Virus record (IMG/VR): IMGVR_UViG_3300029288_000055
Location: 234,764-298,763 of that record
From: a virus
Taxonomy: Duplodnaviria; Heunggongvirae; Uroviricota; Caudoviricetes
Length of the DNA stretch: 64,000 nt
Reading direction: 5' to 3' (one strand)
A model generated the notes under the pieces. It had not been told where the DNA came from and ran no database searches. It saw nothing but the letters and a program-made list of their open reading frames with translations. Positions 2,550 to 38,949 of the stretch are shown one piece after another (position 1 is the stretch's first letter; the number at the start of each line of letters is the position of its first letter). A program made the translations under genes and the position numbers.

Positions 2550-2621
2550 GCTTCCATGACCGAATGGCTATGGTATCGGTCTCTAAAACCGAGTGTGCGG
2601 GTTCGATTCCTGCTGGAAGCA
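2550..2621 (+). tRNA. Amber suppressor tRNA (anticodon CTA), tRNA-Trp-like anticodon arm
   Basis: Acceptor GCTTCCA/TGGAAGC, A73; anticodon arm TCGGT-CTCTAAA-ACCGA; variable GTGT; T arm GCGGG-TTCGATT-CCTGC. Confidence 0.92.
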
Positions 2622-2635
2622 CAAAAAAATTAATT

Positions 2636-2876: not shown

Positions 2877-3227
2877 ATGAAGTAGGTAAAATTAGTAACA
2901 ATCACAAGAAAAGACCTCTATGCAGGTTATCAGTTAGTGCAGACTGCGCATTCAGTTGCGGAATTCGCACATCAATATCCAGATCAGTTCAATGACTGGA
3001 AACAAAATTCTAATTACATTATTTCGTTATCTGTCGATAACGAAGAGAAACTTCAAAGACTATTTTACAAATTACAGGACAATGGTGCTGATGTCGTTGC
3101 ATTCACAGAACCCGACATTAACGATCAGTTGACCAGTATTTGTTATTATGGTACGCCTGAAATGCGAAAATTAACAGACAAGTTAGATTTAGCACTTGAA
3201 GAAGTTAATGTCGCAACTAATAATTAA
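2877..3227 (+). CDS. Peptidyl-tRNA hydrolase (Pth2-like fold) with in-frame amber codon at codon 3
   Basis: ATG AAG TAG GTA AAA... is in frame with ORF 2937-3227. Read-through gives MK*VKLVTITRKDLYAGYQLVQTAHSVAEF...W...VVAFTEPDINDQLTSI, matching Pth2-like motifs (RKDL, QxxH, FxEPD, LT). Confidence 0.8.
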
Positions 3228-3250
3228 ACTTGCAACTAAATTTAAAAGCT

Positions 3251-3286
3251 ATGAAACACTTATAGATGACAACCAGACCCCCGTAA
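3251..3286 (+). CDS. Amber-containing leader minigene MKHL*MTTRPP*
   Basis: ATG AAA CAC TTA TAG ATG ACA ACC AGA CCC CCG TAA after the A-rich leader TTTAAAAGCT; followed by hairpins. Confidence 0.6.
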
Positions 3287-3414
3287 TGATGTGCATTACA
3301 CCAGATTCGCAATTCGCAAATCACGAACGAATCGATTACATAAAATACGTAACGTAAAATATGTAATATACAAAATGTATAATCAATAACAAATAAATTT
3401 TAATACACATTATT

Positions 3415-3747
3415 ATGGAAACAATAGTAAAATTCAATTATGCAAAAATGAAGGAAGACATTAAAACCAAAGCTGAAGAACAGAAGTTCTTAAAAAATCA
3501 GAGAAAAACCATAAAAATAATCGGTGAAAGAGTAATCCCTGCAAAGGATGCCACATACAAACATATGACAAACAGAGAAGACTTACGAATCATGTACGCT
3601 GCTTATGGTTTAGCCAGAGGCAAGAATTTTTCTCAAATCGAAAATCATTATCTTGAAGAAAATCATCCTCTTCAGAAATACCAGAAAAGTATCGATAGAC
3701 TTTTAGAAAAGTATAAGATGCTTGTAAAAGTTGAAACAGTAGAATAA
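3415..3747 (+). CDS. Hypothetical protein with R-x-M-Y-A-A-Y-G-L-A-R-G motif, co-transcribed with the Pth-like gene
   Basis: 110-aa ORF; same unit ends at terminator 3754-3778. Confidence 0.75.
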   Translation: METIVKFNYAKMKEDIKTKAEEQKFLKNQRKTIKIIGERVIPAKDATYKHMTNREDLRIMYAAYGLARGKNFSQIENHYLEENHPLQKYQKSIDRLLEKYKMLVKVETVE

Positions 3748-3753
3748 TGAAAT

Positions 3754-3778
3754 GGGGTGATAACACACCCCTTTTTTT
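3754..3778 (+). terminator. Intrinsic terminator
   Basis: GGGGTG-ATAACA-CACCCC followed by T7. Confidence 0.85.
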
Positions 3779-3850
3779 ATTTTTTTCTTGCATATTTGCT
3801 ACGGATTGTATAATTTTACGAAAAATAATTTTAGAGTTAATATATTTTAT

Positions 3851-38846: not shown

Positions 38847-38863
38847 TCAATGTACAGAATAAT

Positions 38864-38893
38864 AAAAAGGGGTGAAATTTCACCCCTTTTTTT
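38864..38893. terminator. Intrinsic terminator
   Basis: AAAAAGGGGTGAAATTTCACCCCTTTTTTT. Confidence 0.85.
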
Positions 38894-38949
38894 ATAACCT
38901 TTTTAATTAAAAGATCGTATAATAGTTATTAACCACTAACTTTAAAGCA

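Follow-up and report, generated by a model that had tools for sequence, protein, structure and literature searches.

Organization of the locus

The stretch of DNA analyzed here, referred to as the window, is 64,000 nucleotides (nt) long, comes from a virus of the Caudoviricetes, and spans C1:234764-298763 of the 362,763-bp contig C1 of G000. The subject of this report is an 11-codon leader open reading frame (ORF), or minigene, in this window that is interrupted by an in-frame amber codon (UAG) and precedes a gene for a 110-amino-acid (110-aa) protein. The leader is part of a unit that reads, in order along the + strand, tRNA with anticodon CUA, a 47-codon ORF, a PTH2-like gene, the minigene, the 110-aa gene, and an intrinsic terminator (Table 1). 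A preliminary description of this DNA had placed the ATG of the minigene at 3251, its TAG at 3263-3265, the codons AGA CCC CCG at 3275-3283, TAA at 3284-3286, TGA at 3287-3289, and the ATG of the 110-aa gene at 3415, and all of these positions proved to be correct.

Table 1. Features of the suppressor tRNA, leader and 110-aa gene unit (window coordinates)
Feature	Position	Strand	Basis or remark
Suppressor tRNA, anticodon CUA	2550..2622	+	ARAGORN; Rfam tRNA, 62.7 bits
PTH2-like gene, begins ATG AAG TAG (TAG 2883-2885), first amber gate	2877..3227	+	Pfam PF01981, 25.5 bits
Leader ORF, MKHL-UAG-MTTRPP-UAA (gate UAG 3263-3265, Arg-Pro-Pro 3275-3283, stop 3284-3286)	3251..3286	+	63 distinct versions
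5' arm of long-range helix (last Pro codon, UAA, UGA, following bases)	3281..3298	+	fold, duplex tests, RNAalifold, pair counts
Inner hairpins of leader (3304-3333, 3335-3367, 3368-3380)	3304..3380	+	in minimum-energy fold
3' arm of long-range helix (110-aa start region including AUG 3415-3417, and G 3418)	3401..3418	+	fold, duplex tests, RNAalifold, pair counts
110-aa gene, putative regulated gene, no assigned function	3415..3747	+	324 homologues at E <= 0.001
Intrinsic terminator ending the unit	3754..3781	+	6-bp G+C-rich stem, then T run

The amber codon of the leader has to be seen against the genetic code of the phage. Coding coverage of the 363-kb contig is equal whether TAG is taken as a stop or as a sense codon, and TAG terminates 19 of its 316 long ORFs; therefore, the phage uses the standard code. 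In the region examined, only two amber gates were found, those of the PTH2-like gene and of the leader. Other candidates in the window proved to be neighboring genes with a TAG stop between them and were rejected.

A leader conserved across an amber codon

Relatives of the 110-aa protein and of PTH2 were retrieved from IMG/VR and JGI metagenomes. They provided 107 loci with at least 200 nt upstream of a 110-aa homologue, three of which are cut at a contig end. The preliminary description had proposed a search upstream of homologues of the protein encoded at 3415-3747 for short ORFs that contain TAG and end in Pro-Pro-stop. Using a somewhat looser pattern (ATG, one to four codons, TAG, three to five sense codons, a final CCN, and a stop), such a leader was found in 104 of the 107 loci, which is all 104 usable ones, as 63 distinct sequences. 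Elsewhere in these loci the same pattern occurs a single time in a total of 966 kb, counting both strands. Furthermore, a strict degenerate version of the minigene matched 15 contigs in the whole of IMG/VR, and all 15 matches were this locus in related phages. The minigene had been suspected of being no accident of sequence, and these counts bear that out. A wider search for loci by a single-protein scan found no further locus, and the leader had no match in Rfam at E <= 1.

The frame from ATG through TAG to TAA is intact in all 63 distinct leaders while other residues drift freely. The leaders have two to five codons before TAG and four to six after it, all differences come in whole codons, and the peptide is 8-12 residues long; the spacing from gate to stop is six codons in 55 of the 63 versions. 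Synonymous changes are seen after the TAG. The third-last codon is AGA in 50 versions and CGA in 11, both encoding Arg. The second-last is CCN with C, A, T, and G in the third position in 16, 23, 10, and 10 versions, the four others having GCA, TCG, or GAC. The last is CCA in 51, CCG in 7, CCT in 4, and CCC in 1. Because the frame is kept from ATG past TAG to the stop and synonymous changes occur after TAG, ribosomes are expected to read through the TAG; in other words, this comparative evidence indicates that the leader is translated across UAG. The base 3' of TAG is A or G in 59 of 63 versions, and the codon following it is seldom a start codon. The second codon of the leader is AAA in 55 of 63, and the resulting ATG AAA start resembles other gene starts of the phage.

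At the end of the peptide, Pro is the last residue in 63 of 63 versions and is followed directly by a stop codon, which is TAA every time. Arg stands two residues before this Pro in 61 of 63 leaders, and also in the leaders of loci L116, L126, L128, and L131. The middle residue of this Arg-x-Pro motif is Pro in 59, Ala in two, Ser in one, and Asp in one of the 63, and it is Gly in L116 and Ser in L126 and L131.

Gate codons match the suppressor tRNA

The gene for tRNA(CUA) is present in 50 of the 51 related loci that have at least 1.5 kb upstream of PTH2. The PTH2-like gene of the window carries its gate at the very start, and the match to PF01981 begins with residue 2 after the TAG. PTH2 has an in-frame TAG and an upstream ATG in 84 of 84 distinct loci, and none of them has a start codon from the TAG to the conserved N-terminus. 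The gate takes the form of ATG AAG TAG, ATG AAA TAG, ATG TAG, or a longer upstream ORF ending in TAG.

Further evidence that the gates are tied to the tRNA comes from two loci, L126 and L131, that have tRNA(UUA) in place of tRNA(CUA). Their leaders have TAA at the gate position (MKET-x-IK.RSP), their PTH2 genes begin ATG ACT TAA or ATG AAG TAA, and their 110-aa proteins are 66% and 60% identical to that of the window. Thus, as far as the sequences can tell, the gate codon matches the suppressor anticodon at both gates, and an in-frame stop is evidently the input of whatever the leader controls. No sequence relationship links the suppressor tRNAs of the window, L128, and L126, which indicates that the design is retained while the tRNA is swapped.

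The comparison of loci also indicates that the tRNA, PTH2, and the 110-aa gene form a tight conserved module. The 110-aa gene nearly always adjoins PTH2, in either order and sometimes overlapping it. The arrangement of the module varies. In L116, L120, L025, and L128 the suppressor tRNA immediately follows the 110-aa gene and is not located upstream of PTH2, and in L119 and L122 the 110-aa gene and PTH2 overlap. L122:105-706 is a distant pair of PTH2 and 110-aa genes without an amber gate. The overlap in this pair is 4 nt, and its PTH2 has a GTG start that directly follows an in-frame upstream ORF ending in TAA.

The leader belongs to the 110-aa gene

In about 100 loci, 108-250 nt separate the leader from the 110-aa gene that follows it, and the leader remains with this gene even where other genes part it from PTH2. 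Leaders also accompany 110-aa proteins of low identity: 39% in L116 (MKTHW-x-IRNRGP), 37% in L119 (...IRIRGSP, with PTH2 after the gene), 38% in L025 (MKNR-x-NHTRPP), and 41% in L128 (MKAHW-x-INPRPP). By this pattern of association, the leader is an element of the 110-aa gene and not of PTH2.

This association bears on the idea that the leader works like the bar minigenes of phage lambda. In such a scheme, peptidyl-tRNA that drops off at the minigene would tie up tRNA, the PTH2-like hydrolase would be the counterpart of the minigene, and the 110-aa gene would be a bystander. The lambda bar minigenes do interact genetically with peptidyl-tRNA hydrolase (PMC8012679), over-expression of tnaC depletes tRNA-Pro, as cited in a passage of PMC11890864, and the unsuppressed leader ORF is just 4 codons long. 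However, the leader tracks the 110-aa gene and not PTH2, and its stop region pairs with the start of that gene (see below). Furthermore, a bar-type minigene would show no constraint beyond its stop, whereas selection on codons and maintenance of the frame extend past the UAG of the leader. A bar-type role is therefore very unlikely.

Some loci carry a homing endonuclease next to the leader. In L012:3412-4203, L009:3419-4168, and their relatives, a gene for an HNH homing endonuclease (NUMOD4, HNH_3, HTH) is inserted on one or the other side of the leader. The endonuclease ORF of the L012 and L023 types runs in frame into the first codons of the leader, so that the leader TAG is its stop; read from the sequence, suppression would extend this type of endonuclease.

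A long-range helix joins the leader stop to the start of the 110-aa gene

In the predicted RNA, the end of the leader is complementary to the start region of the 110-aa gene. Positions 3281-3293, made up of the last Pro codon, UAA, UGA, and four further bases, pair with 3406-3418, which comprise the ten bases before the AUG, the AUG itself, and the next G, to form 13 bp, and the helix is extended by 4 bp between 3295-3298 and 3401-3404. The minimum-energy fold of the leader RNA (3240-3440) is -36.7 kcal/mol (z = -5.05 against dinucleotide shuffles) and is closed by this long-range helix.

Several lines of evidence support the helix across the leaders. Of 65 leaders, 62 contain it in the minimum-energy fold of the full leader, and in 63 no segment pairs better with the 5' arm than the start region does. 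Among 69 distinct arm pairs, the mean duplex energy is -13.2 kcal/mol for cognate arms, compared with -11.3 for non-cognate arms (p = 4e-8) and -3.2 for shuffled arms. The pairing occurs in a fixed register. Positions 0-11 are paired in 69-100% of the sequences and far less in shifted registers, and none of the partner permutations reaches the observed fixed-register pairing. In the RNAalifold consensus of 23 leaders the long-range helix is the sole helix; 95.3% of the cells of this alignment pair, compared with 24-54% when the register is slid. In eight divergent lineages both arms have different sequences that are still complementary, and only 0-1 of 300 shuffles reach their energies. The covariation case for the helix, as the alignments present it, rests on these divergent lineages. 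The sense-strand duplex is stronger than the antisense one by 47 to 20 (p = 7e-4), and the pairings include 37 G.U pairs; therefore, the helix is a feature of the RNA.

The helix would also explain two peculiarities of the leader sequence. The first is an apparent tandem stop, T[AG][AG], which in 54 of 63 versions pairs with UUA before the AUG. The second is the wobble preference of the last Pro codon. This codon is CCA or CCG in 58 of 63 versions because pairing with the U of AUG requires A or G in its third position; the penultimate Pro codon is unpaired and uses all four bases. In leaders without an inserted gene, the start site is 58-217 nt away.

Inner hairpins and the spacer

The preliminary description had reported three local stems, and all three are present: TAATG (3284-3288) with CATTA (3294-3298), GATTCG (3304-3309) with CGAATC (3328-3333), and ATTACATA (3335-3342) with TATGTAAT (3360-3367). 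The latter two are both within the minimum-energy fold of 3240-3440. The first had been described as a hairpin over the stop. As a control element it was rejected; it is missing from that fold, being outcompeted by the long-range helix, which replaces it in this role, and it is lacking in close relatives such as L003. The stem at 3304-3333 recurs in about 30 leaders, and its CA to UG changes keep pairing only as G.U, which argues that this pairing acts at the RNA level. The stem at 3335-3367 is found in only 11 of 70 leaders.

The spacer as a whole folds alike on both strands (z about -3 each) with no overall strand bias, and RNA-type use of G.U is limited to the long-range helix and the 3304-3333 stem. 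The spacer is a mosaic of palindromes, and because it folds about equally well on both strands, proteins may also bind to some of them. That the palindromes are promoter or operator motifs used across the genome was rejected, since they occur only at this locus in the contig. The same symmetry and uniqueness would fit another view, in which the leader is not translated at all and its conserved bases are a DNA operator, a promoter array, or an RNA element with an incidental ORF. This view fails to account for third-position variation that is limited to wobble sites, for the exchange of AGA with CGA, for indels of whole triplets only, for an ATG AAA start shared with other phage genes, and for a gate codon that changes with the tRNA anticodon; it is hardly credible.

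The spacer contains no intrinsic terminator between the leader and the 110-aa gene, so attenuation by an intrinsic terminator was discarded. The preliminary description had called the leader an attenuator. Control by the leader is supported, but the lack of a terminator between leader and gene favors translational unmasking of the erm or secM type over transcription attenuation. A different transcriptional output is conceivable in which the leader and gate are the same and a held ribosome hides a Rho entry site downstream, as in the tna operon, so that RNA polymerase would continue into the 110-aa gene. TnaC likewise ends in Arg-Pro-stop and works through Rho (PMC11890864), an engineered tna leader with an inserted TAG works in this way (PMC6412442), and the stretch after the leader, at about 3299-3330, has more C than G. 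However, a transcriptional output would leave unexplained the complementarity of the stop region with the start codon and the replacement of both arms in the eight lineages, and as the sole output it is improbable. A Rho-type output could exist in addition to translational unmasking.

A proposed translational switch

The findings described above converge on a model, which we consider likely, that the leader is a translational switch for the 110-aa gene and takes the activity of the phage-encoded suppressor tRNA as its input. In the resting state, the AUG of the 110-aa gene would be locked in the 13+4 bp helix with the last codon of the leader, its stop, and the following bases. Without suppression, a ribosome that translates the leader would meet UAG at codon 5, and its release there, some 16 nt ahead of the helix, would keep the gene shut. 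With suppression, tRNA(CUA) would read the UAG and the ribosome would translate six more codons to Arg-x-Pro-UAA, where release is expected to be slow. A ribosome with its P site on the last Pro would cover the whole 5' arm and free the AUG, allowing a second ribosome to initiate. No Shine-Dalgarno signal was found upstream of 386 ORF starts in the contig, and therefore initiation should depend on an open start region. The 110-aa gene is thus probably translatable only when the UAG-reading tRNA of the phage is working. We infer that the leader and the gene are transcribed together.

The geometry of the leader fits this model. On the 3' side of its P site, a ribosome covers about 15 nt. When UAG occupies the A site, the P site is at 3260 and coverage extends to about 3275, which does not reach the helix start at 3281. 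When UAA occupies the A site, the P site is at 3281 and coverage extends to about 3296, which takes in the 13-nt arm. In other words, the predicted stall places the P site on codon 3281-3283, with which the 5' arm (3281-3293) begins, and coverage of this arm follows from footprint sizes in the literature. The preliminary description had proposed an amber-suppression-dependent leader peptide with a stalling motif that controls the 110-aa gene. Every comparative test run speaks for that proposal, and the search it had suggested was positive in 104 of 104 loci.

How would the ribosome be held at the end of the leader? In RxPP arrest cores the Arg is irreplaceable, and the middle residue can be Ala or Gly, with Ser, Asp, and Pro partly permissive (PMC12992588). 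C-terminal runs of Pro are reported to give the poorest termination in E. coli (PMC6412442). One possibility is that no arrest is needed and that any ribosome at the stop opens the helix by plain translational coupling, with Arg-x-Pro kept for some other reason. The helix and the gate alone would already suffice as a switch, and the stall is the part of the model that goes beyond them. Coupling alone does not account, however, for an Arg that is held by two synonymous codons and a Pro that never changes while other residues drift, nor for middle residues that equal the published permissive set for arrest cores. Furthermore, a start site at the distances observed would profit from a long-lived open state. 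We regard coupling without arrest as unlikely and a switch with a held ribosome as the better account.

Several observations weigh against this switch. Arrest at Arg-x-Pro-stop would be an extrapolation, since a Pro codon occupies the A site in the known RAPP-type arrests; slow termination after Pro, with nothing more, may be all that happens. Covariation in the helix is modest within the close family, where 7 of 13 pairs are invariant and 3 show double changes. The distant gene homologues in L120 and L122 are without a leader. Leader and 110-aa gene are kept apart by a homing-endonuclease gene in four lineages (876-950 nt), and in these the long-range pairing is weaker or unlikely to form. 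A TATAAT is present at 3378-3383; there may be a promoter between leader and gene, and a transcript from there would be without the 5' arm. In the ochre lineages the final stop of the leader is also TAA and hence itself suppressible. Finally, no RNA run containing this DNA was among the public runs listed.

Relation to known systems

The component parts of the proposed switch are already known: arrest cores, helices that hide start codons, arrest at termination, and engineered leaders with UAG. RAPP-like arrest peptides (ApdA, ApdP, and ApcA, and the RAGP of SecM) resemble the leader in having an Arg-x-Pro core that ends a short regulatory ORF upstream of the controlled gene (PMC10951233, PMC12992588). 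In both, the Arg is strictly kept and x is small (Pro, Ala, Ser, Asp, or Gly in the phage leader). The known cases differ in that a Pro (or Gly) codon is in the A site and peptide-bond formation is blocked, whereas the phage leader has a stop there. They are also longer secreted or membrane 'monitoring substrates' that are relieved by force, whereas the phage leader has 8-12 codons, a stop-codon gate, and, given its size, no N-terminal signal or membrane segment.

The leaders of ermC/ermB, cat, cmlA, and secM-secA would share with the phage leader the principle that a ribosome held in a short leader melts a helix hiding the start of the next gene. Judged by sequence, the phage locus has the same elements as the erm and cat types, which are an upstream leader, a helix that sequesters the start, and a predicted stall site on the sequestering arm. 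Their input is an antibiotic or secretion activity, and that of the phage leader would be read-through of a stop by a dedicated tRNA. Moreover, the phage pairing is direct, from stop region to start codon, with no intermediate alternative hairpin.

TnaC and PepNL hold the ribosome while a stop codon occupies the A site, as is proposed for the phage leader, and TnaC also ends in Arg-Pro-stop (PMC11890864). TnaC differs in needing free tryptophan and long tunnel contacts and in acting through Rho. PepNL is a peptide of only 14 residues whose arrest is sensitive to read-through of a stop codon (PMC11890864). Read-through of the final stop cancels the arrest of PepNL, however, whereas the phage leader would need read-through of an internal stop to reach its arrest site. 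The proposed logic is exactly that of engineered leaders in which downstream expression needs translation past an inserted UAG by tRNA(CUA) (PMC6412442); these are a man-made unnatural-amino-acid switch on tna and trp leaders, with a transcriptional output. A phage suppressor tRNA has likewise been proposed to time gene expression in recoded phages that use code 15 (10.1101/2021.08.26.457843). Those phages have in-frame TAG throughout their late genes, whereas the phage described here keeps the standard code with TAG still a stop. A full-text search of the literature found no published natural leader with a suppressor tRNA as its input.

Suppressor tRNAs in general are common in phages whose genomes are not recoded, and the locus described here bears on their purpose. 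Its suppressor tRNA has two defined and conserved neighboring targets, the directly gated hydrolase gene and the leader peptide, and by way of the leader, read-through appears to be turned into translation of another gene. If confirmed, the leader would be a natural sensor of stop-codon suppression, a design known so far only from synthetic biology. It would also mean that Arg-x-Pro arrest cores can work before a stop codon and in peptides of about ten residues. A further idea, to which we give only a small chance, is that held ribosomes also tie up release factor or tRNA-Pro and that, together with the gated PTH2 and the 110-aa protein, this sets up a self-reinforcing loop that drives the infected cell into a general state of UAG read-through. 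Such a loop, if true, would mean that the phage alters the reading of stop codons in its host, and the 'orphan' suppressor tRNAs of phages with the standard code would then have a purpose.

The 110-aa protein and the genomic setting

The homologues of the 110-aa protein fall into 207 clusters at 50% identity. Among the 120 of 324 homologues that were listed, none is named beyond 'hypothetical protein' and none has a Pfam domain. The protein had no match in Pfam or PHROGs, and the protein atlas returned hypothetical proteins only. Its predicted structure is a helical hairpin with two terminal strands (pLDDT 92.9). A Foldseek search of this model against the PDB found nothing at E <= 0.001, and VIA-align wide found generic helical hairpins only (Z up to 6.1). 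A 371-aa protein encoded at L121:810-1925 is similar to the 110-aa protein over its N-terminal ~95 residues (39% identity, E = 1e-17, local tblastn); the context of L121 is cellular-looking, with a Crp-type regulator and faint cytochrome c matches.

The contig has 30.5% G+C and carries 55 tRNA genes at C1:195944-237385. The metagenomic bin around it is 1.27 Mb in size. Nearly all other contigs of the bin have 33-43% G+C, and its two release-factor genes are both on contigs other than C1. From its sequence, C1 looks like a huge phage genome that was binned together with a small cellular genome. The region had no match in a BLAST comparison with the GenBank phage collection, and public runs containing this DNA are landfill and groundwater metagenomes.

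Gene starts in the contig are A-rich at -14 to -10, and the motif AA[AT]TT[TA]AA is enriched (13.7% vs 2.0%). Together with the missing Shine-Dalgarno signal, this suggests a host with Shine-Dalgarno-independent initiation. Elsewhere in the window, 40 nt at 38856-38895 are 85% identical to 3741-3780, the end of the 110-aa gene and its terminator, and are probably a second copy of the terminator at 3754-3781.
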